DNA of 64,000 nucleotides from Eledone cirrhosa. Lineage: Eukaryota. How positions within the stretch are numbered: the stretch's first letter is position 1; each line of letters starts with the position of its first letter. Location: NCBI GenBank assembly GCA_964016885.1, contig OZ024741.1, positions 163,432,001 through 163,496,000 of the forward strand. Direction: 5' to 3'. The position numbers and the translations under genes were made by a program. Of this stretch, positions 22,695-36,690 are shown one piece after another. Below the pieces are notes generated by a model. That model worked only from the letters and a program-made list of their open reading frames with translations, did no database searches and had not been told where the DNA came from.

Positions 22695-23261
22695 GTTATT
22701 CCGGGTTGAATCGGAGGTAACCACTGTAAGTAAGGTACTCAATACATAGCAGAGTATAAAAGTTTTAATATAGATGAGATTCCCCAGGACTAGAACTGTT
22801 TCATTCTTTAGAAATCATCAGGAATCTGGCTTTCCAAATATAAATGTTGTATTTATAGCTCTTTTCAGGTGGTAGGAGAGGGTGGGGAGTGGAATGGGTA
22901 GAGGTCATTGGTTGATAGAAAGGGAATTCATTAAAATCTAATTCTTTAAAGCTTTAATTTATATTTAGAGTGACAAAGGCAGAAAGAATTCTATAAACAA
23001 GTTCTGAATGGAGTGCCACTGCTTATTTTTAAGTTTCTCTTAAGCTAACAAGCCTATATTTCAGGTGTCTATAAGATCGTTAGGGTGTCGGTCATGGTTG
23101 ATGGATTTAAAACCTAATTCTTTAAAGTTCTACTTAGAGTGACAAAGGCCATGAGAATTCTATAAAAGAGTCCAACATATTGGGTGCCTATCATCTCATT
23201 ATCTTGAAATTTCTCTTAAGCTATATTCCAGGTGTCTACAGACACATTCACCTACACACAA

Positions 23262-23413
<152 letters not shown>

Positions 23414-25345: not shown

Positions 25346-25440
<95 letters not shown>

Positions 25441-25948
25441 GCGTGTGTGTGTTTGTGCGTAGGTGAATGTGTCTGTAGACACCTGGAATATAGCTTAAGA
25501 GAAATTTGAAGATAATGATATGATAGGCACCCAATATTTTGGACTGGTTTATAGAATTCTCATGGCCTTTGTCACTCTAAGTAGAACTTTAAAGAATTAG
25601 GTTTTAAATCCATCAACCATGACCGACACCCTAACGATCTTATAGACACCTGAAATATAGGCATTGTTAGCTTAAGAGAAACTTAAAAATAAGCAGTGGC
25701 ACTCCATTCTGAACTTGTTTATAGAATTCTTTCTGCCTTTGTCACTCTAAATATAAATTAAAGCTTTAAAGAATTAGATTTTAATGAATTCCCTTTCTAT
25801 CAACCAATGACCTCTACCCATTCCACTCCCCACCCTCTCCTACCACCTGAAAAGAGCTATAAATGCAACATTTATATTTGGAAAGCCAGATTCCTGATGA
25901 TTTCTAAAGAATGAATCTCATCTATATTAAAACTATATATATATATAT

Positions 25949-25981
<33 letters not shown>

Positions 25982-26036
25982 AATCAAGAAAGAAGAGTGA
26001 CACGGTTTACTATACAATAAGGGTTTTAATCACATT

Positions 26037-26142
26037 GCTGACAATTGTTTCTCTGAACTGGTAGGTCTAGAGATCGCTACCCGCCTGTTTCTGCGTCAAT
26101 CGATCATCAATACATAGTTATAACCAGTCAATTCATCAGAGC
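26037..26142 (-). ncRNA. Type I hammerhead motif with long stem II insert
   Basis: Minus strand: GCT-CTGATGA-...-GAAA-CAATTG-TC-AGC, followed by AT-rich 3' sequence. Confidence 0.7.
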
Positions 26143-26480
26143 TTGCGAGAATGAGGGGAATACACAGGCATGGCTTCTATATATAATAGTGGCATTAAAT
26201 GAGAACAATAATAACAATACTAACAATGCTAGAAATAAATTAGTTGAAATAATCACATCAATCTAAGTAAGACATAAAGTATACTTATGACTTTAGCATG
26301 TAAAACGTGCTGATATGAGACAGATGTATGAAATTGACATGTAAAAGCTGTCATGGGGTGTATTATATATAGTGTAGAGATAAGCCGGGCTTTAAACAAT
26401 GTACCATTTCCTTTACCGTAGGTCTGGTGACCATAAGAATTATTTATTATCTGACAGATAAAATATCTGACAGATAAAAT

Positions 26481-26620
26481 AAGACCTCTCGGCCTTGCTA
26501 CCTTTCTTCCTTTTTTATTTTTAAAGAAGCGCATATGGCACTGCTTTGCAACCTGTCCGGTCGGGAGGGAGGTTAGTACAATCATTCTATCGGATAGTTT
26601 GATGTTACTAACCTCCCTCC
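26481..26620. repeat. Left inverted repeat with palindromic hairpin A
   Basis: GGAGGGAGGTTAGTACAATCA-TTCTATCGGATAGTT-TGATGTTACTAACCTCCCTCC, preceded by an arm complementary to 30107-30181. Confidence 0.85.
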
Positions 26621-26772
26621 GTCTGTCTGTTTGTCTGTCCGTATGTACGTCCGTCTGTCTGTCCTTTGGTCTCTCTGTCTGTCCGTTGGTCCGTCTATCT
26701 GTCCGTCTGTCCGTCCGTCCGTCTGTCTGTATGTCCGTCAGTCCGCTAGTCTGTATATCCGTCTGTCTGTCC
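26621..26772. repeat. Degenerate (GTCY)n tetranucleotide tract
   Basis: Seen directly in the sequence; tracts of this kind are typical of DINE-1/Helentron-associated elements. Confidence 0.8.
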
Positions 26773-26977
26773 TTTGCCTATCCGCTAAACGTCTAGTTGC
26801 ATTCCTCCACCTCCCTCTCTCCCACGATTCCGTTCGCGTCAAAGATGCAGTGCCACATTAGCGAAATCAGATAAGTGGGTCAGTAGGATATCATATTACA
26901 AAACATGTTCAGACTTGTTTATACAAGTTTAAACCAGTTACAGTTTGAATGAAATTAAGCAGAGTCAGCATGAATTT

Positions 26978-27020
26978 GATTGGCTAATAGAAATTTAGGC
27001 GGGAATAAGATATATAAATA
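26978..27020 (+). promoter_or_regulatory. Putative viral Pol II promoter
   Basis: Inverted CCAAT (GATTGGCT), a GC/E2F-like box TTTAGGCGGGAA and a TATA box TATATAAATA, about 90 nt upstream of ATG 27112. Confidence 0.6.
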
Positions 27021-27111
27021 CGATAGACAAAGAGACTTGTTACCACTCAGCACAGGCAGGAAGAAATGAAGAACGCTACTCCGTCGACTTAGAAGCAATA
27101 TACCAACAAAA

Positions 27112-27165
27112 ATGAACTACGAAGACTTAAAGCTGAGAGACGCACAAATGTTAAGCGAGTTAGAA
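27112..27165 (+). CDS. Putative NS1 leader exon (MNYEDLKLRDAQMLSELE)
   Basis: AAAAATG start context. A phase-0 consensus donor, GAA|GTAAGT at 27166, matches the frame after the acceptor TTACAG| at 28790. Confidence 0.5.
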
Positions 27166-27172
27166 GTAAGTT

Positions 27173-27541
27173 ATGCCTTTACATTTACCATTTTATAAAT
27201 ATTGTGGGCCTTTCACAGATAACTTGATGAAAAGCCGATTAATGAATTAGACGAATGTTGTCACGAACACGATTTACAATACGGGAATGAATCGATAGAT
27301 GATAGGGATGCAGATAGAGAATTAATAGAGTGCACCAAGAAAGTTGACGGAGTAGCTTCGTTTATAGTGAGACAGGCAATTAATAGTAAATTACTAATGT
27401 CACCTATATTATATTAAAAAAAAAAGAAAAATAGAACAGAATCAGTCTAAGAAGAATCAAGATAGTTGCGACGCAGACATAGAATACGACGAGGACTTTA
27501 AGACACAAGACAGTGGTATAGAATCATAACAAGATACAGAC
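27173..27541 (+). pseudogene. VP1-unique region with parvoviral phospholipase A2 domain (frameshifted)
   Basis: MPLHLPFYKYCGPFTDN, then a 1-nt shift at about 27222, then LDEKPINELDECCHEHDLQY..ADRELI. This gives the YxGP Ca-loop and the HDxxY catalytic motif. A second shift in the A-run at about 27416 and a TAA at 27527 separate it from the capsid ORF. Confidence 0.85.
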
Positions 27542-28798
27542 ATGGGGGATCCACACGTAGGGCCGTCACCAGGGGGAAGCGTAGCTATGTCACAAGGCGA
27601 TGTACCTCCGACAACAGGAGATATAAATCCTATAATATCTAAAAAGATTTCGAGAACATTTGTACATTACGTTAACTGTTTCGATCAACCGTTCGATACG
27701 GCGAAGTATAAAAAGAAAGATGGTGAATATTTAGAATTAGAAATAGATCACAGAGCAATGGTAATACCATACTACTATTTAAAAGTAAGCATGACTATTG
27801 CAGAGTTACAAACATATTTAACACCGGCAAACAATTTCAGAATTAAGTCGTGCGGATATCATATTTCAAATATAGTACCGTTATCAGATGAATTGGGGAC
27901 TTTACGGGGCACAACAACTACAAATACTACATTCAATACAAGGCCGTGGTTAACAACATATGTAGATACAAAATTTGCATTATTTCCAAACTCGACATAC
28001 GATATAGAAATACCAAATTATAGTTTCACAATTAATATACCGAGAACTAGAGAAGAGGGAAAATTAAAACACTCACATACTGGGAGATTAGTAAGAAAAG
28101 ATTGGTGGCTGTGGAACGATCAAAAAGCACCATCAGATACTTCTCAAGAAACTAACGCAGAACCTCTATTATCATATTTTAATACTGGAGATTGGAAACC
28201 GATATATGCGGGCCAAACGACGGCTTATACATGGATAAATAGATCACCCAGTTGGTTTAACCTCATGGGATATTATGCGTTTAGATGTAATTTCGATCCA
28301 CCGACTATTACTTTTCATAACGGATTGCCTACAGAGATTAATACATTGTCTGGAGGACAGAAATCACAATGGGCGCCAACATTAGCGGGTAAATGGTCAA
28401 GGGGTTTGGCAGTTGATAAACAGGCGGAAGAGGAAAATACTGTTAGATCACATTTAACTCAATTTCCTATCAATCCTTCTAATCCTCCGCCAATAGCATG
28501 TATAGACGGCATACCAATATTAGACTCACAAAACGCAATAGCAAAAATAACATTTATGTTAACAGTCACTTATACCTCAGAAATAGATTTCAAATATATA
28601 TTGGGTAGTCCACAAATGGTAGGATGGATGGCGTGGGGCAAAGACCATGCAATTATTCAAAATTCGGCTAAAACAAATATATGTAAATGGCCACAAGGTT
28701 TACGTAATTATGAAATTACACGAACACCAAAACACGACAGGCACTTCATTAATAGTAATATTACAACAACCTTCTTCATTTACATTACAGAAAACTAA
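27542..28798 (+). CDS. Parvovirus/densovirus-like major capsid protein
   Basis: Uninterrupted 418-aa T/N/P-rich ORF in frame with ATG 27173 of the PLA2 region and next to NS1. The segment IPYYYLKVSMTIAELQTYL..FRIKSCGYHIS resembles densovirus capsid strands (by eye). Confidence 0.78.
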   Translation: MGDPHVGPSPGGSVAMSQGDVPPTTGDINPIISKKISRTFVHYVNCFDQPFDTAKYKKKDGEYLELEIDHRAMVIPYYYLKVSMTIAELQTYLTPANNFRIKSCGYHISNIVPLSDELGTLRGTTTTNTTFNTRPWLTTYVDTKFALFPNSTYDIEIPNYSFTINIPRTREEGKLKHSHTGRLVRKDWWLWNDQKAPSDTSQETNAEPLLSYFNTGDWKPIYAGQTTAYTWINRSPSWFNLMGYYAFRCNFDPPTITFHNGLPTEINTLSGGQKSQWAPTLAGKWSRGLAVDKQAEEENTVRSHLTQFPINPSNPPPIACIDGIPILDSQNAIAKITFMLTVTYTSEIDFKYILGSPQMVGWMAWGKDHAIIQNSAKTNICKWPQGLRNYEITRTPKHDRHFINSNITTTFFIYITEN

Positions 28799-28811
28799 CC
28801 AAAAATGATAC

Positions 28812-30022
28812 ATGATGATATTTCCTTGGCTGAAAGAGAACGATTTCGAGTGGAACGAAGATGAAACTCCCTTTTTCGATACGAAACCGATTAAAACCAA
28901 CAAATATTGTCGTGACGAAGACATGTCGGAAACGAAAAACGTCTGGCACATGAACACTTTATGTAAATTACAAGAATTCATAGAAAAATACGACTGTTCC
29001 GTTATCTATCATCCAAAGGAGGCGAGAATATGCGATAAAAAGGAATGTAATTCTTACAATCATTTTCACATAGTATGGCTAGACACAGCAAGACCAGGCG
29101 AAAATCAAAAATTTAAATACATTCGAGCGACTTATTCAAAAGCTTGTTCGTTGAAACTGAAAATACCAGATTGTCAACGCATTAGATTTCCCAGTGCTAT
29201 GGCTAACTACCTCACACAAGAACCGCGTACGATAATTAAAGTCAGTAACGGACCGATTTTGCGACAATTCTCTTTTTGGTGTACAGCAGATTACATCCCA
29301 AAACCGACCAAAGAAGTAAAACCAGAAAATAGCGAAAAAGATGAGGAAAACGAACCGACTTTCAAATCGAGATCTGGGGCAACACTTACGTTGTTTAATT
29401 ACCTGAGGTACATGTTTACATCGAAAAACTTTCGCACAGATTACGAAATGAAACAGTTTTGGTTGACCCCAAAAAATAATGAAAATTTCATGAGAGCAAT
29501 ATCTCATCCTCAATACGAAAACGTAATGCGAAAAATAGAATGTGAAAAAATAAAAACGTTAGCCAAAACTTGGAGAGAGAAATTCAACAACATGAATTGG
29601 CAAATATTCAATGGTGGAGAATTTTTAGATCTTGAACACAGCATGATTGTATTTAAAACGATTATGTTAACCCAAAATCTTGACGAACAAGCATTTGTTC
29701 AAAATGTATGGGAACTATTAGAGAAAAAAAAAACAGAAAGAAATTTATTGGTATTACGCGGTTTACCAAATACTGGGAAATCAATGATAGCAATATCTAT
29801 TGGCGATATGTTCACTCATATCTCAACGATACAAGGTACAACAACTTTCCCGTTTCAAAATTTAATTAATATAGAATTAGGTCTAATGAGGAACCGAACT
29901 TTACCGTTGAAACACTTCAAACTTTCAAAAAACTTTCTGAAGGAGTAGATACGGAGGTTGCAGTCAAATACAAACTCGATCAGACTGTAAAACCAACGCC
30001 ATTAATCATAACAAATAATAAT
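28812..30022 (+). pseudogene. NS1: NS1/Rep: HUH endonuclease plus SF3 helicase, frameshifted and 3'-truncated
   Basis: HUH motif HFHIVW, motif 3 NYLTQ and Walker A GLPNTGKS. A 1-nt deletion at about 29888 hides Walker B LMEE, B' (FKKLSEG..VAVKYK) and motif C PLIITNN. The frame is cut by the hairpin repeat at 30023. Confidence 0.92.
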
Positions 30023-30310
30023 TGCCACCGGTCCGGTCGGGAGGGAGATTAGTACAATCATTCTATCGGATAGTTTGATTGTACTAACCTCCCTCCCTAC
30101 CGGACCGGTTGCAAAGCAGTGCCATATGCGCTTCTTTAAAAATAAAAAAAAGGAAGAAAGGTAGCAAGGCCGAGAGGTCTTGCTACCTTTCTTCCTTTTT
30201 TTAATTTTGTCTTAGTTCCAAACGCATATGGCACTGCTTTGCAGCCGGTCCGGTAGGGAGGGAGGTTAGTACAATCAAACTATCCGATAGAATGATTGTA
30301 CTAACCTCCC
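30023..30310. repeat. Right compound palindrome: hairpin A - hairpin B - hairpin A
   Basis: Hairpin A at 30023-30131; hairpin B (AAGGAAGAAAGGTAGCAAG-GCCGAGAGGT-CTTGCTACCTTTCTTCCTT) at about 30150-30198; hairpin A in the opposite form at 30223-30310. Confidence 0.9.
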
Positions 30311-30431
30311 TATTTTTTTTTTATTCATTTGTATGAAATCATCAAGAATGCCCTGATGATTTCATATAAATGAAGCAATTTTAGTCCTGTAGAAACCATT
30401 TCTATATTAAATTTTCATTATATATATATAT

Positions 30432-30966
30432 TTTTCTTCTTCGCCCACTTGTTCCTGAGAGGGTCGTGGGGCCAGAGTTCTCAAACACTCCCTCTAGCGT
30501 GTCTTGTCAGAAACAACCATCTCCAACTGATCCGGTTCGATCCTTAAGCATGACCAGACATGCTCATTGATGTTATCCAACGATCTTGGTTGGGGTCTAC
30601 CGCAGGGTCTCTGACCAGTTGGTTTTGCCCGTTAAATACATCCAGCGATTCTTTCCCAAGACATTCTAGCCCATAGTATCGGAGTTGTGATATCTCAATT
30701 CGGAGAAGTAGTGGCTCTACCTGGAGTGACTCTCTGATCTCCGAGCTACGCACTCTATTGGGTAATGTTACTCCAAAGACCCTTCGGAGGAATCCCATTC
30801 TGGTCGCTTGTGTTTGTGATTGTATTCTTTTGGTAATTACCCAAGATTCATGACCATACGTAAGGGTTGGCACAAAAACCAAATTGAAGATAGCGAGTTT
30901 TGCTTTTATGCTTACCTCCCTTCTAAGTACTGAATGTTGAAGCTGGTGCATTATTGCACCAGCTTT
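30432..30966 (-). mobile_element. RTE-clade LINE 3' fragment
   Basis: KAKLAIFNLVFVPTLTYGHESW..MGFLRRVFGVT..RVRSSEIRESLQVEPLLLRIEISQLR matches the RTE C-terminal region; GAAGAAGAAAA tail. Confidence 0.85.
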
Positions 30967-31172
30967 TACAATCAAACTATCCGATAGAATGATTGTACTA
31001 ACCTCCCTCCCGACCGGACCGGTTGCAAAGCAGTGCCATATGCACTTTGCAACCAGTTCGGTCGGGAGGGAGGTTAGTACAATCATTCTATCGGATAGTT
31101 TGATTGTACTAACCTCCCTCCCATCCGGACCGGTTGCAAAGCAGTGCCATATGCGTTTGGAACTAAGACAAA
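30967..31172. repeat. Two further hairpin A copies in opposite forms
   Basis: Copies at 30967-31043 and 31045-31155; the arm TTTGGAACTAAGACAAA is complementary to 30206-30222. Confidence 0.9.
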
Positions 31173-31750
31173 TGTCAACAAATCCTGTGTCCTCACTGCT
31201 CTCTTGTTCTTCTCTGAGACTTGGACCACACACGGGGATCATACCGCCTGCACGTTAACGCCCGCCCTCTGCCTCCGACCAGCCTTCCGTCGCCGATGCG
31301 TGTTCCGCCGATGATGCGTGCCGAGTCCGCCGCCGCCGACCGGTGTGGCTGCCGGGGATTCCAGCCAACGACGACGCCCGAACAGCGGCGGATTGATTCT
31401 TCTTCTATATCTCTTTCTCACTTTCTTTCTTCGGAAGAAATCGTCTGTTTCGATCTGGAAAGTAACGGATTCAGCCAGTAGGACGACGCCATCAGTTGTT
31501 AAAGGTCATGTACTTTTGTCATATTTGTTCTCTTATGTTGTGGGTAACCCATCAAATCTTGCGGGTTAATCAAATTTCGATAGGTTTACGAATATTTCAG
31601 AAGATATATTCACATGATATTACAAGGCAGCTGACCTAGATAACAGTGCATAGCTTTGTATTTTCTGAACCATGCCACCACAGTATCATATTTGATGTTT
31701 TCACTTGGTGAGAGTATTGTCTTGATGAGAATATCTACCGATATTGGTAG

Positions 31751-31820
<70 letters not shown>

Positions 31821-31856
31821 TGTGTGTGTGTGTGTGTATATGGTCAATAACCGATA

Positions 31857-32050
31857 GCGCATATGGCACTGCTTGGCAACCGGTCCGGTAGGGAGGGAGG
31901 TTAGTACAATCAAACTATCCGATAGAATGATTGTACTAACCTCTCTCCCGACCGCACCGGTTGCAAAGCAGTGCCATATGCGCTTTGCAACCGGTCCGGG
32001 CGGGAGGGAGGTTAGTACAATCATTCTATCCGATAGAATGATTGTACTAA
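31857..32050. repeat. Two further hairpin A copies
   Basis: Copies at 31857-31983 and 31983-32050; the latter has a fully symmetric tip. Confidence 0.9.
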
Positions 32051-32051
32051 C

Positions 32052-35000
32052 ATATGCACGCATCTCGGACATGCCTGGCTGACGGCACCTCCATGCCTGT
32101 AGAGTTTATCCCGAACTGGCAAAGCTCCTCGGTAGCACTGCCAGGCCAGGGATTTCTGGAATTTATCCATAGGCCCCGGCCCGAAAGTTCTTCCGAAGAG
32201 ATTGGCTAGTTGATTTTCGTCGACGCCTAAAGTTCCCCCAAGTACGTCGTCGCTCTTCCCCTCCACTAATCCTCTATAGAACGCCAAGATTGAGTTTCCA
32301 CCGATCACATTGCCCGATTGGTCGAGGGCTGTGAGTGCCTGAAGACATTCCACTCTCCAAGCTCGCCTTCTCGGTCTTCGCTTGTCCCAGGACTGCAGCT
32401 CTGTAAAGGAGACGAGCTGGGGAAAGACGCGTCTAGCAAACGGCGACCAGATCTGATCACCGTCGAGGAAGAGGTGGAGATGTCGTAGCCTGAGCGCGTG
32501 TCTGCGCATCATCAGCCACGGCACGCCCAGCCCTCCACGTAGCGGGTGTTGAAAGCAGATGGACCGCCGGACCATCGGAGCGCGTCCCTTCCACAAAAAG
32601 CGAAAGAGCAAACGCTCCAGCGCAGTCAGGTGAGGCTTAGGATTAGGTACGACGATCAGGCGGTAGTAGATGACGAACGCTATGTACGCGTTAGCCACCT
32701 CTGCTCGACCTTTCAGCGATAGCTTTCTCTCGGCCCATTTCTGGGTGAGGGAAGCCACCTTGCTCGTCACCTCGTTCCAGTTTTTCTCCATATGGAGGTC
32801 CGGCCCGAACCAGACCCCGAGTAATTTAACCGGTCCGTCCGTCCAACGCCCCACGACGCTGTCGGGCGGCATGGACTTGCCTCTCCAGGTGCCGAGCTGC
32901 AAGCCCACCGACTTTTCTTGGTTTATCTTTGCTCCTGTTACCGCTTCGTATTCTTTGAGAGCGGTGCCGAGCATCTGGACGAGTCTGGTGCTCGACACCA
33001 CCACGGTGACGTCGTCGACGTAAGCCGTTCGGATTTCCCGCATGCTAGTTCGCGAGGGACGCTCCTCATCGCCCAGAGTTTGTGCAGTAACACCTCAAGA
33101 GCCATTACGTACAAGGGGGACAACCTGGCGGACCGAGTGCATGATGCTGAGCGGCTGCGACAGGTGACCGTTCACCTTCACATCTGAAAACGGGCCCTAA
33201 ACCTGCTGCCTCGAGGACCGCCGCCAAGTATCGATGGTCGAACTTATCGAATGCTTTGGATTGATCCAAGTTGATCAGCCCCCCCCCCGTGCCAGCATCC
33301 TTAACCACCCTCTCTATGATGTATCGCATGAGGTGGAGGTTGTCGTGTATGGATCTGTCCGGAATGGCGCATGTCTGCGCCTCTCCCACCAGACCCTTGA
33401 CGACAAGCGCCAACCTCGTTGCTAATACCTTGCCCAAAATCTTGATCTCTGCGTTTAGCAGGGTTATGGGTCTGAAATTATCGATAACATCCCCCTTCTT
33501 CGTGTCTTTTCTCAGCAGCGCCACTGCTCCCCGGCTTACAAAACTGGGAATGCTCCCGTTCTGCTGCCAGTTGCAGTAGACGTCACTGAACAAGTCTGGC
33601 ATAAATTGATAAAGCTCGTAGGGCAGACCATCCAAACCTGGCGATTTACCCCTCGAGCAGTTAGGAATCGCTTCCCGTATTTCACCGGCTGTTATTGGCT
33701 TTTCGTAACACTGTGCCGCGGTCGTCGAGAGCCGAGGCAGTCCGTCGAGGTATGCACTGAAGTCCATGCCCCGATCCGGCCCGCCGCTGATCCCGAACAT
33801 TTCAACAAAGCGCTGCTAAAAAGCTTCTCACATCTGCTCGTGTTCGAGCAACACTCACCCGTTTTGGTCAGACAAGGACCGAATTGTGGCTTTGTTGCCA
33901 CGTCGCGCCTCTTCCACCGGGGCCCATTGGACAGCTTTTGTCCCCTCGTGTTTCAGAGCACGCGCTCTAGCTCTGACAACGCAGCCTTCGTGTTTTGCGT
34001 TGAAGAAATGGTCGAGTGCCAATCTCGCCGCAAGCACGTCGGTTGAGATGCCTGTCCTAAACGCCTCTTCTATCGTTCTGACTAGCTCTCCCTCTACTCT
34101 ATTTTCCTCTATCACTAGTCCTTTGCTAAACCTCATCGACTCTACTTTAATTGCCCTTTTCAGGGCGAACCACCATCTGTTGTTGACGATCGCTCCCGTC
34201 AACGTCCGCTTAACTAATACGCTATTCCGGTCTCTGTAAGCTTTGCGTGACGGAAAAGACGCGTTCAGCTTCCAGTAACCGGGCCCTTGTCTATGAAGTC
34301 TGTCTATGTCGATCTCACAGATCACAAATTTGTGGTCTGTGTAGTCGACTATTTTAAATTGTGGACAACTTATACTAGCCTTATCCAGTTCTCTGCAGAA
34401 TACCCTATCGAGATACGATCTGGATGACCCGATGCGGTTTGTCCATGTCCACATTGGCACATCCGGGTGATCCAGTCGATACCTGTCAGACAGTTCAAAA
34501 CGTCTGAGCAGGTTGGTGAGGCTTTTGCACCCTCCTCCCCTATCCACTAGCCCCACACAATCCCAGCGTGCATCCAAGATACCCACTAACACTAAAAGCG
34601 GGACGTTCCAAGAAAGGTCTCTAGACGTCTGAAGAAATCTGGCCGTCCTGCCCCTGTTTGGGCGTAGACGGCTACTAGCGTGAAAGCATTGCCTTCGCTG
34701 CTGGTCACGTCCAGCACCACCGACTTACCTTCTGGGTCTAGGAAGATGGCTAGTATGGCGAGATCCAAGCTTCTCCGAAAAAGCACGGCAACCCCTCCCC
34801 CGATCCTGGACGGCTGGGAGATGCGTATACATCGTAGCCGCCGAAGATCGGTGCGAAGGCTTGTGCTTCGGAGATTCTGGTCTCGCTGATGGCCACCACA
34901 TCTATGTTTAGTGACCTGAGGTCGTTGAGCAGGTGACCCTTTTCCAAGATGACCTCAGGCCACGTGCATTTATACTGCCTATTCTGAGTACAGCCATGTT

Positions 35001-36690
35001 GGATGAGAAACGGGGTAAGTGAGAAAGGGTCACTCACCTTGATCGTGTGGTGAAGGGGCAGTAGAACCGTCCCTTTGGCTGGTCATGGGTGATTCCAAGA
35101 TGATGCCAGTGTATATCCTCTTGGTAACCGACCCTCTGAAGTCTCCAACTGCGTTGGGGAATTTTTGTTTTAAAGGTTTGTACTGTTCTATTGAGATTTC
35201 AATTATGCTTATGTTTATCGGGAGAGTTCTTGGTGTGGTGGGATGTAGTAGTTTTTTTCTATGATGTCTATGTGCTGCTTTATATATTGTATGAGTTCTT
35301 TTTTTGCCATGTTTATGGCTGTGTACTTTTTGGGGGAGAGGTGATTTTGTTGCTGTTTTCTTCTTGTTGCTGTTTGGTGTGTGTGTTTTATTTTGTTTGC
35401 GTTGTTAGTGTTTTTGGTGATGCTGGTGGTGGTGTGGTTGATGTTGGCGGTGGTGCTTGTGGTGGTGATGGTGATGGTCGTGGTGTTGCTGCAAGTTTCA
35501 TTGCTGCCGTTACCCCTCTTTGTATGCCTTCACTTTTGGAGGGTGAATCTAAGGGTTTTTTTCTTTTTTCTTTTTTTGTGGCAGACCGTTTGCCACTTTA
35601 CTCCCGCCTCAAACTCCATGTCGGATTCCGTGGCGTCTGGGAAGGGTATGTGCTCCACGGCTGTTGGTGGTGGTAGTGGAGCCCTCTCCGGCAATTTTGT
35701 TGCTGGTGTAGCTACTTCAAATGTAGCTATTAGTGTTGCCGTTACTGATGCTGCTGCTTTAGTTGTCCGTGTCCTTGGTACGGGTTCCACGGACGTTGCC
35801 CTCCTACTCACCGTAGAAGGGGCTTCTGCGTTTGTTTCCTGCCTTGCTCTTGGTAGCAGCGGACCAGGTATTGGAAGGAGAGGGGCCTTCTTCTTCACTG
35901 TCTTCTGCGGGCAAAAGGCCCTGAGGTGACCCTTCGACCCACAGAGATAACATTTTGGCCGTCTTCCTTCTACGCTTATAGGGAGTTGGAGTCTTTCCTC
36001 GATGTCTATGATATCGGGGATAGCGTCGATACATTCCTGGTTAGTTTGTATAAGCATTTGCATGCCTATACCTGACCAGCTCTCTCTCCCTATTCTCTCT
36101 ACTTGCATCATGGTCGTCCTGTCCTCGATTACAGCAAGGACAGACGTGGCCAGCCAAGGTATGGGCACGTCGGGTGGGATCTGGGTCTCTTTGACCCTCA
36201 CAATTTTCTGCCTGCAGTAGGAGGGCACCAAGACTATCTCCTCACTCTTTAGGGTTTCCAAAGAGTGAGACTTCGCTTCTTGGGGAGTGGCGAAAAGTAC
36301 GTCTACTGTGGCGTACTTTATGCCTCGGGTGATGTGGGTTTTGCGTGCCCTGACGCACCCCAAGGCCTTTTGGATTTGAGCCTCCGTGGCTCTCTCCACC
36401 CGATATGAGATTTTGCTTACGGTGCGGTAAGTCATCTTCCGTAGCTGCTGGTCCTTGAAAAAATCGGGTGGAGGTTTCATGGAGACTCTATTGGCGCTTC
36501 TTTTCACCATGGCCCTTGCGACTGCCATCTCCTCCTCTGCGACTAACACTGCCTTGATATTTCGGGCGACACCTGCAAAATAAGTGGTCCATTTTTCATC
36601 AGCACCACTATTGCTGCCGTTACTGGTCTTACTGGTGGTGCTGAGATCGCATATATTAAACATACGCGACAAACCGCATAGATACACAGA
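32052..36690 (-). mobile_element. L1/Tx1-type LINE, near full length and degenerate
   Basis: ORF1 has a CCHC knuckle. ORF2 starts at ATG 34997 (MAVLRIGSINARGL, APE domain, SYLDR) and includes RT motifs KSPGLDGLP, NFRPITLLN, LDQSKAFD and YVDD, with frameshifts and an internal deletion. Confidence 0.9.
35530..36687 (-). CDS. L1/Tx1 ORF1 gag-like protein with zinc knuckle
   Basis: 385-aa ORF with CYLCGSKGHLRAFC, upstream of ORF2. Confidence 0.8.
   Translation of the reverse strand: MYLCGLSRMFNICDLSTTSKTSNGSNSGADEKWTTYFAGVARNIKAVLVAEEEMAVARAMVKRSANRVSMKPPPDFFKDQQLRKMTYRTVSKISYRVERATEAQIQKALGCVRARKTHITRGIKYATVDVLFATPQEAKSHSLETLKSEEIVLVPSYCRQKIVRVKETQIPPDVPIPWLATSVLAVIEDRTTMMQVERIGRESWSGIGMQMLIQTNQECIDAIPDIIDIEERLQLPISVEGRRPKCYLCGSKGHLRAFCPQKTVKKKAPLLPIPGPLLPRARQETNAEAPSTVSRRATSVEPVPRTRTTKAAASVTATLIATFEVATPATKLPERAPLPPPTAVEHIPFPDATESDMEFEAGVKWQTVCHKKRKKKKTLRFTLQK

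Follow-up and report, generated by a model that had tools for sequence, protein, structure and literature searches.

Seven Hairpins From the NS1 Side of an Endogenous Parvovirus-Like Genome in Eledone cirrhosa: A Probable Integration Scar From a Capsid-First Lineage

The Viral Element and Its Hairpins

A stretch of 64,000 nucleotides from the genome of Eledone cirrhosa (assembly GCA_964016885.1, contig OZ024741.1, positions 163,432,001 to 163,496,000 of the forward strand), hereafter the window, contains a decayed parvovirus-like element with a capsid gene (VP1) and an NS1 gene, around which seven copies of a DNA hairpin (H1 to H7) are clustered between positions 26481 and 32050. Based on the evidence presented below, each of these hairpins derives from the palindrome that ended an endogenous parvovirus-like genome on its NS1 side. 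Template-switching repair during a single integration event likely multiplied them, and the genome belongs to a lineage in which the capsid gene is located upstream of NS1 and is predicted to lie inside an NS1 intron.

Both genes lie on the forward strand. VP1 (27173-28798) carries a PLA2 domain; its frame is broken by a stop at 27527 and, within the PLA2 region, by two frameshifts, and is open from 27530. It is followed by the body of NS1 (28791-30021), with the HUH motif HFHIVW, the YxxQ motif YLTQ and the Walker A motif GLPNTGKS, interrupted by a stop at 28806 and a frameshift near 29890 and cut by H2. The family PF01057 scored above its cut-off in the NS1 of the window (27.1 bits vs 20) and in sibling copies of the element, and the PLA2 family PF08398 reached 51.5 bits in a sibling VP1 and 23.4 bits (cut-off 23.9) in the broken frame of the window. 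VP matched no Pfam capsid domain. Among solved structures, the capsid profile retrieved only those of Penaeus monodon metallodensovirus (PmMDV; 6WH3, E 4.7e-8) and of 9NEK (E 6.3e-4), given as Syngnathus scovelli chapparvovirus in an excerpt of PMC12115719, over about 60 positions, and the NS1 profile retrieved none. The top Atlas match for the capsid was a Denso_VP4/VP1_2 cluster at 0.96, with low recognition.

The E. cirrhosa genome holds 52 matches to NS1 and 55 to VP, and gene order was scored in 35 stretches around the best of them plus the window. At 18 loci of this set, the capsid gene ends and NS1 then starts on the same strand; joins of an NS1 end to a capsid start were absent, and two NS-then-VP contacts join internal break points. 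The endogenous copies of this genome are arranged capsid-first. Circular permutation, as in a permuted concatemer, was discarded as the cause of this order, since no hairpin lies between capsid and NS1 and the gap is about 55 nt in the siblings. A second endogenous lineage (L038 1-3107, L118-L125), with about 25% NS1 identity, is also capsid-first, at seven loci, and a Sepia fragment in an excerpt of the supplement of PMC5013282 resembles it by eye only.

Scanning of the window located seven hairpin tips and no others, in agreement with an earlier sequence-only reading of this DNA that had counted seven palindromes and none elsewhere in the window. The asymmetric tip TTCTATCGGATAGTT (flip) is found at 26585, 30061 and 31086 and its reverse complement (flop) at 30278, 30975 and 31913, the two forms that reading had described, and the last tip, at 32024, is indeed symmetrised. 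H1 (26527-26620; tip 26585-26599, flip) has its second arm cut after about 21 nt, and H2 (30022-30133; tip 30061-30075, flip) adjoins NS1. H3 occupies 30206-30311, the hairpin proper being 30223-30311 (tip 30278-30292, flop) and the preceding 17 nt a host flank. H4 and H5 form a tandem pair (30967-31158) with a flop and a flip tip, and H6 and H7 a second one (31856-32051) in which H6, with a flop tip, keeps the full 57-bp stem and H7 is the symmetrised copy; both pairs have the same tip spacing of 111 nt and the same junction. The stem of 40-60 bp attributed to the family fits three copies, those at 30022, 31045 and 31856 (about 39, 41 and 57 bp, respectively), and fails for the other four, which are cut on one arm, retain the other at length and form a stem of about 8-21 bp. 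All seven copies fold far better than shuffled sequences (z from -5.0 to -17.0; 0 of 200 shuffles as good in each case).

The hairpin arms differ pairwise by 4.2% (105 of 2512 positions), and nearly all of the changes are private to one arm, a pattern which suggests that copying took place within a short time and was followed by separate decay. A C/A mismatch located 23 nt from the tip tracks the tip form in nine of the ten arms that are long enough to be scored, and the tenth has a private change at that position.

A DNA search of the 3.0-Gb genome with the hairpin returned 14 matches, all within this locus; the search skips very common words, and an exact stem-pattern search agrees with its single-locus result as regards a dispersed miniature inverted-repeat transposable element (MITE). 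Apart from this locus, the exact stem pattern has matches only on contig C998, in which the hairpin forms a bridge between two NS1 ends arranged tail to tail.

The Viral End Represented by the Hairpins

On four other contigs, sibling copies of the element have homologous hairpins 3' of NS1, which supports the sequence-only interpretation of the cluster as rearranged viral termini. At loci L044, L046 and L047, NS1 is followed first by a poly(A) signal, then by a stem-loop with a T-tract behind it, and finally by arm and tip, and the tip of L047 equals the flip tip of the window at 11 of 12 nt. The capsid-side end of the siblings is closed by a different hairpin, which has only the GGGAGGGAGG core in common with the NS1-side one and whose inner half persists in the window as a remnant at 26774-26830 (forward strand). 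Both hairpins are present in L040 and L046, 3.9 kb from tip to tip. Since the siblings carry the homologous hairpins on the NS1 side and a different one on the capsid side, all seven copies of the window are assigned by sequence comparison to the NS1-side end. The proposal that the repeats flanking the genes are left and right termini was consequently abandoned, as both are NS1-side, and H1 was rejected as the left terminus in favor of the remnant at 26774-26830.

Full capsid-side hairpins were observed in seven copies at six loci (L039, L040, L041, L042, L046, and L054), all in one orientation, and half remnants in five places (the window, L035, L038, L097, and L098), all being the complement of the outer arm. 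This contrast between full and half hairpins gives a Fisher p of 0.002, in a post hoc comparison where several copies are near-identical viruses. The pattern fits a single left-end isomer whose tip would have been opened and which would have been resected ahead of joining.

Between an A- and a T-tract, the window also holds a viral subterminal stem-loop with a GAGA loop (30139-30208, forward strand), to which homologous covarying hairpins correspond after NS1 at five sibling loci; a half of it, together with the T-tract and the viral outer flank, reappears as an inverted copy at 26481-26526 (reverse strand), the mirror of 30134-30181. The stem-loop is located just 3' of the NS1 poly(A) signal in the window, L038, L044, L046, L047, and L098, with a variant in L037, and it has an invariant G-T pair and a loop that is mostly GNRA. 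In an alignment of six hand-picked rows, with the structure taken from the window copy, both sides had changed in 15 of 22 pairs, a value reached by 0 of 500 shuffles. It is likely that the structure is a signal for RNA 3'-end formation or termination. The 30139-30208 palindrome had also been considered a mere fold-back, an option discarded because its core is a conserved viral stem-loop.

Junctions With Host DNA and Formation of the Cluster

On its left side, the cluster abuts a host repeat with long terminal inverted repeats (25979-26466) that is cut at 26466 and whose usual continuation is absent from the window; a 16-bp tandem duplication at the host-virus junction (26448-26481, forward strand) is likely a templated insert. 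Between H1 and the capsid-side remnant lies a filler of GTCT/GTCC-type simple repeats (26621-26773), not seen at the sibling capsid-side ends compared. The NS1 gene is broken off within helicase motif C, where a TTGC microhomology links it to H2. H5 is joined to a host repeat via CG, and that host flank is copied inverted in front of H3, so that the 17 nt preceding H3, at one point a candidate for viral sequence, are host repeat. The 636-bp host piece between H3 and H4 (30324-30959) matches G000:C1416:28368-29003 end to end at 93.9%, with unmatched flanks, and terminates in a 6-nt snap-back in front of H4. The host DNA between the two tandem pairs (31156-31855) comprises a dispersed repeat (31156-31243), a member of a tandem-repeat family (31244-31390) and a (GT)n tract (31754-31837). 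Beyond H7 there is a host non-long-terminal-repeat retrotransposon on the reverse strand (32055-36690; zinc knuckle, endonuclease, and reverse transcriptase), whose 3' side is cut by H7 and whose continuation is not in the window. The microhomologies at the junctions measure 2-4 nt (TTGC, GCTT, and CG), no target duplication or rejoining flanks were found at the locus, and the copies are cut at different points.

The combination of microhomology joins and short templated inserts makes it most likely that the cluster is an integration scar. Taken by itself, it represents an integration scar of a known type, well preserved in the germline and left by a dead element. With regard to its formation, we infer serial template switching in one repair event: a hairpin-primed duplex intermediate would have been captured at a chromosome break, repair synthesis would have alternated several times between host DNA and the palindrome, the tandem hairpin pair would have been made once and then duplicated, and the copies would have decayed separately after integration.

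Sequencing runs provide support for the locus. Contigs from the runs X1, X2, and X3 represent three stretches (26574-28709, 28687-30078 and about 30101-30235), deviate from the window by 0-1 differences and have the depth of the neighboring unique DNA, and in all three runs they carry the H1-to-VP junction, the NS1-H2 junction and the H2-stem-loop-H3 junction; the private changes of H1 and H2 are reproduced in them, and a contig of X3 also covers 31143-31278. Two runs of restriction site-associated DNA sequencing (RAD-seq; X4 and X5), a reduced representation of other samples, barely reach the viral part. The seven hairpins are real DNA of the sampled animal.

Some further observations concern the siblings and the surrounding DNA. 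One near-identical virus was inserted four times (G000:C10:49.49 Mb, C14:8.50 Mb, C5:102.83 Mb, and C998), always as inverted or truncated concatemers, pointing to a recent wave of integration; the hairpin bridges on C10 (head-to-head) and C998 (tail-to-tail) follow the pattern predicted by rolling-hairpin replication. Both lineages occur within the same few tens of kb at G000:C12:9.07 Mb, C2:345.37 Mb, C25:7.44 Mb, C841 and C18:15.04-15.08 Mb, which suggests trap loci such as piRNA clusters. L044 (2200-5172) contains an open frame of 991 codons running from non-viral sequence into the middle of NS1, either by chance or as a selected fusion. The window itself presents near-perfect, unrelated host palindromes of 80-400 bp (7032-7196, 7645-7728, 11815-12227, 12680-13076, and 61713-61829, among others), a 560-bp inverted duplication at 97.5% (22800-23359 and 25356-25915) and a 452-bp tandem array at 99% (57704-58908).

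Predicted Splicing and Expression

Upstream of VP1 there is a TATA box (27011-27017, forward strand), the putative single promoter, followed by a conserved first exon of 18 codons (27112-27165) that ends at a predicted splice donor, GTAAGT at 27166 (to 27171), the sole GTRAGT in the element of the window. An 18-codon open reading frame (ORF) ending at a GT(A/G)AGT donor is placed 7-10 nt 5' of the VP1 start at 12 of the 13 loci where that start is recognized, those with a decayed start having been left unscored. The predicted acceptor, a pyrimidine tract with a CAG ending at 28790 (28751-28790, forward strand), is in frame with the first exon, both sites being phase 0. Tract and CAG lie 18 nt 5' of an NS1 motif at 15 of 15 loci, once five pattern matches outside NS1 are dropped; the codon after the acceptor is Met at seven loci, Leu at seven and a stop at one. 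The CAG is invariant in 12 of 12 rows taken one per locus, and the 12 columns that follow it vary. Most simply, these conserved signals would place the start of NS1 in the small exon and make the capsid gene its intron, a strong prediction from sequence. The first-exon peptide was found at the start of none of 178 stored proteins, most of which come from DNA gene calls.

Both genes of the live virus could be served by a single promoter located at the end next to the capsid gene, unspliced RNA being translated into VP1 and spliced RNA into NS1, and the GGGAGGGAGG core common to its two different hairpins would likely be the NS1-binding origin. On balance, we favor an undescribed lineage of cephalopod parvoviruses with a single promoter and the whole capsid gene in an NS1 intron, in which splicing vs intron retention would switch between replication and capsid synthesis. 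Its two telomeres would differ from each other, the one beside the capsid gene being kept in a single form, and the NS1 poly(A) signal would be followed by a conserved RNA stem-loop.

Alternative Explanations

Palindromes give chimeric long reads, and some or all of the copies could be artefacts of assembly or of library fold-back, a concern already raised in the sequence-only reading. The supporting runs X1-X3 all derive from one sample, perhaps the source of the assembly, and pieces spanning the H6-H7 junctions are not among the contig pieces examined. Nevertheless, the private changes in the arms together with the run contigs, which repeat those of H1 and H2 and three junctions at full depth, are not what an assembler repeating one palindrome would produce, and an artefactual origin is very unlikely. 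Long palindromes are also fragile in genomes, and the host pieces interleaved in the cluster have several origins, as might be expected if the copies had arisen long after integration by repeated breakage and repair of an unstable chromosomal palindrome. This history is highly improbable, given that the changes are private to each arm and not nested, indicating copying in a short time, and that the siblings also contain inverted concatemers of this kind, their copies being near-identical. Scarcely credible is the proposal that the hairpin is a host MITE or a mini-element mobilized by an HUH nuclease that was repeatedly inserted near a viral fragment. The window does contain many unrelated host palindromes, but the genome DNA search largely refutes this explanation: its 14 matches all fall at this viral locus within 3.0 Gb, and neither the many dispersed copies that would characterize a MITE or HINE family nor fixed ends, target duplications or rejoining flanks were found. 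Homologues of the hairpin occur solely at the ends of NS1/VP elements, answering the question of co-occurrence that the sequence-only reading had posed.

The two tip forms require a separate consideration, as they had been taken for the signature of parvoviral terminal resolution. Relative to the same flank, the copies at 26527 and 30022 do carry opposite forms, as had been noted. On the forward strand, however, H1 and H2 have an identical tip with the shared flank on opposite sides, and together they constitute the two halves of one extended palindrome, of which H6 (31856) is an example in full. Both forms would then derive from the two strands or arms of one imperfect palindrome. Since a duplex copy of an imperfect hairpin displays both forms, their presence at the locus is evidence of hairpin-primed copying and not specifically of nicking by NS1, and the earlier claim was overstated. 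It is nonetheless conceivable, if unlikely, that a defective genome terminated on either side by the NS1-side hairpin was replicated with NS1 in trans and that terminal resolution generated flip and flop before a concatemer was integrated. The rearranged stem-loop junction is common to H1 and H2, yet the tip form relative to it differs; moreover, the stem marker is in phase with the tip, and the right ends of siblings are flip-like (L047) and flop-like (L044) after the internal flank. On the other hand, the tip form of H1 is repeated directly in H2 on the forward strand, as expected of the halves of a duplex palindrome, and the host DNA between the copies and the host flank copied with H3 call for switching at the integration site in any case.

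Several points weigh against template-switching multiplication of the NS1-side end in a capsid-first, intron-nested lineage. Resolution of a defective genome by NS1 before integration would leave just the tips seen here, and the order of the template switches is a reconstruction. The run contigs come from one sample, and none of them spans the whole cluster. The capsid-first order is seen solely in endogenous copies of one genome, the splice is predicted from sequence signals alone, and the AlphaFold model of VP had a pLDDT of 32.8, unusable for a fold search. Finally, the second lineage has no such first exon and an NS1 Met of its own, which means that the nesting in an intron is not needed for a capsid-first order.

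Significance and Comparison With Known Systems

The existence of a capsid-first virus would matter more than the hairpin cluster. The NS-before-VP order, described as universal among same-strand parvoviruses, fits an early synthesis of NS1 and a late one of the capsid; if NS1 is truly made by splicing out the capsid gene, that logic would be reversed and the definition of Parvoviridae widened. The nesting is predicted exactly (donor, acceptor, and phase) and is therefore directly checkable in cephalopod RNA data. In addition, the endogenous copies reveal the two telomeres of a virus group which catalogues have until now listed as helicase fragments.

A profile search returned 14 proteins at E <= 1e-30 and 527 at 0.001, the named relatives being from Octopus vulgaris, O. 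bimaculoides and Lamellibrachia and the nearest named matches being octopus genome proteins. Relatives are found on stand-alone contigs of about 4 kb (P0007, P0165, P0043, and P0072) and on large contigs, and none with DNA context came from the viral_contigs or metagenome_contigs searches. Helicase fragments of this lineage had been catalogued among cephalopod parvovirus-related sequences (excerpts of PMC5013282), including P0014, the O. bimaculoides entry A0A0L8GWZ8; in the text and two of the five octopus rows of that source, the entries are fragments only, with no termini, gene order or splicing.

As in the monosense Parvoviridae described in PMC6537627 and PMC11357303, the element combines terminal imperfect palindromes, about 3.9 kb apart in two sibling copies, an NS1 with HUH and superfamily 3 (SF3) helicase domains and a VP1 with an N-terminal PLA2. 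Accordingly, three features of family membership were found, namely NS1 with HUH and SF3, terminal hairpins around the coding region and PLA2 in VP1, and the hairpin-bracketed region, scored against the 4-6 kb of Parvoviridae, measured 3.9 kb tip to tip (L040 and L046). In contrast, PMC11357303 gives NS-left and VP-right as the arrangement of all parvoviruses; here, at 18 + 7 loci, the two genes share a strand with VP located 5' of NS1, and the NS1 of the window's lineage is a predicted spliced product. A capsid-first parvovirus was not found in the literature searched, in which subscription journals are thinly covered. The nearest exception found to the NS-first order is the Swazi bat-associated megaparvovirus lineage (excerpt of PMC13426907), with complete endogenous copies and a PLA2-bearing ORF upstream of NS1; its capsid ORF, without PLA2, follows NS1 in a genome of about 6.4 kb, while in the present lineage PLA2 and capsid are in one upstream ORF and nothing comes after NS1.

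The telomeres can likewise be placed among known ones. PmMDV, as the review excerpt describes it (PMC11357303), lacks PLA2 and has inverted terminal repeats (ITRs) of 416 nt with a T-shaped hairpin, unlike the PLA2 and the two different I-shaped hairpins seen here. The capsid-side end resembles the single-form left end reported for LuIII, where one form at one end and two at the opposite end were described, a report doubted in the excerpt of the paper that cites it (PMC1185569); in contrast to the heterotelomeric ends of LuIII and minute virus of mice (MVM), the single-form end of this lineage adjoins the capsid gene and not NS1. An endogenous copy of Bemisia tabaci ambidensovirus also retains the flip-flop palindrome of an I-shaped telomere, although that virus is ambisense and homotelomeric and one partial ITR remains (excerpt of PMC12297876). 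As regards the scar, the truncated termini, microhomologies, inserted nucleotides and loss of host DNA parallel the junctions of integrated adeno-associated virus (AAV), for which truncated ITRs, microhomologies, extra nucleotides and host deletions are described in an excerpt of PMC1131931; unlike them, the locus preserves a natural invertebrate virus as a fossil in the germline, and it packs seven hairpins into 5.6 kb.

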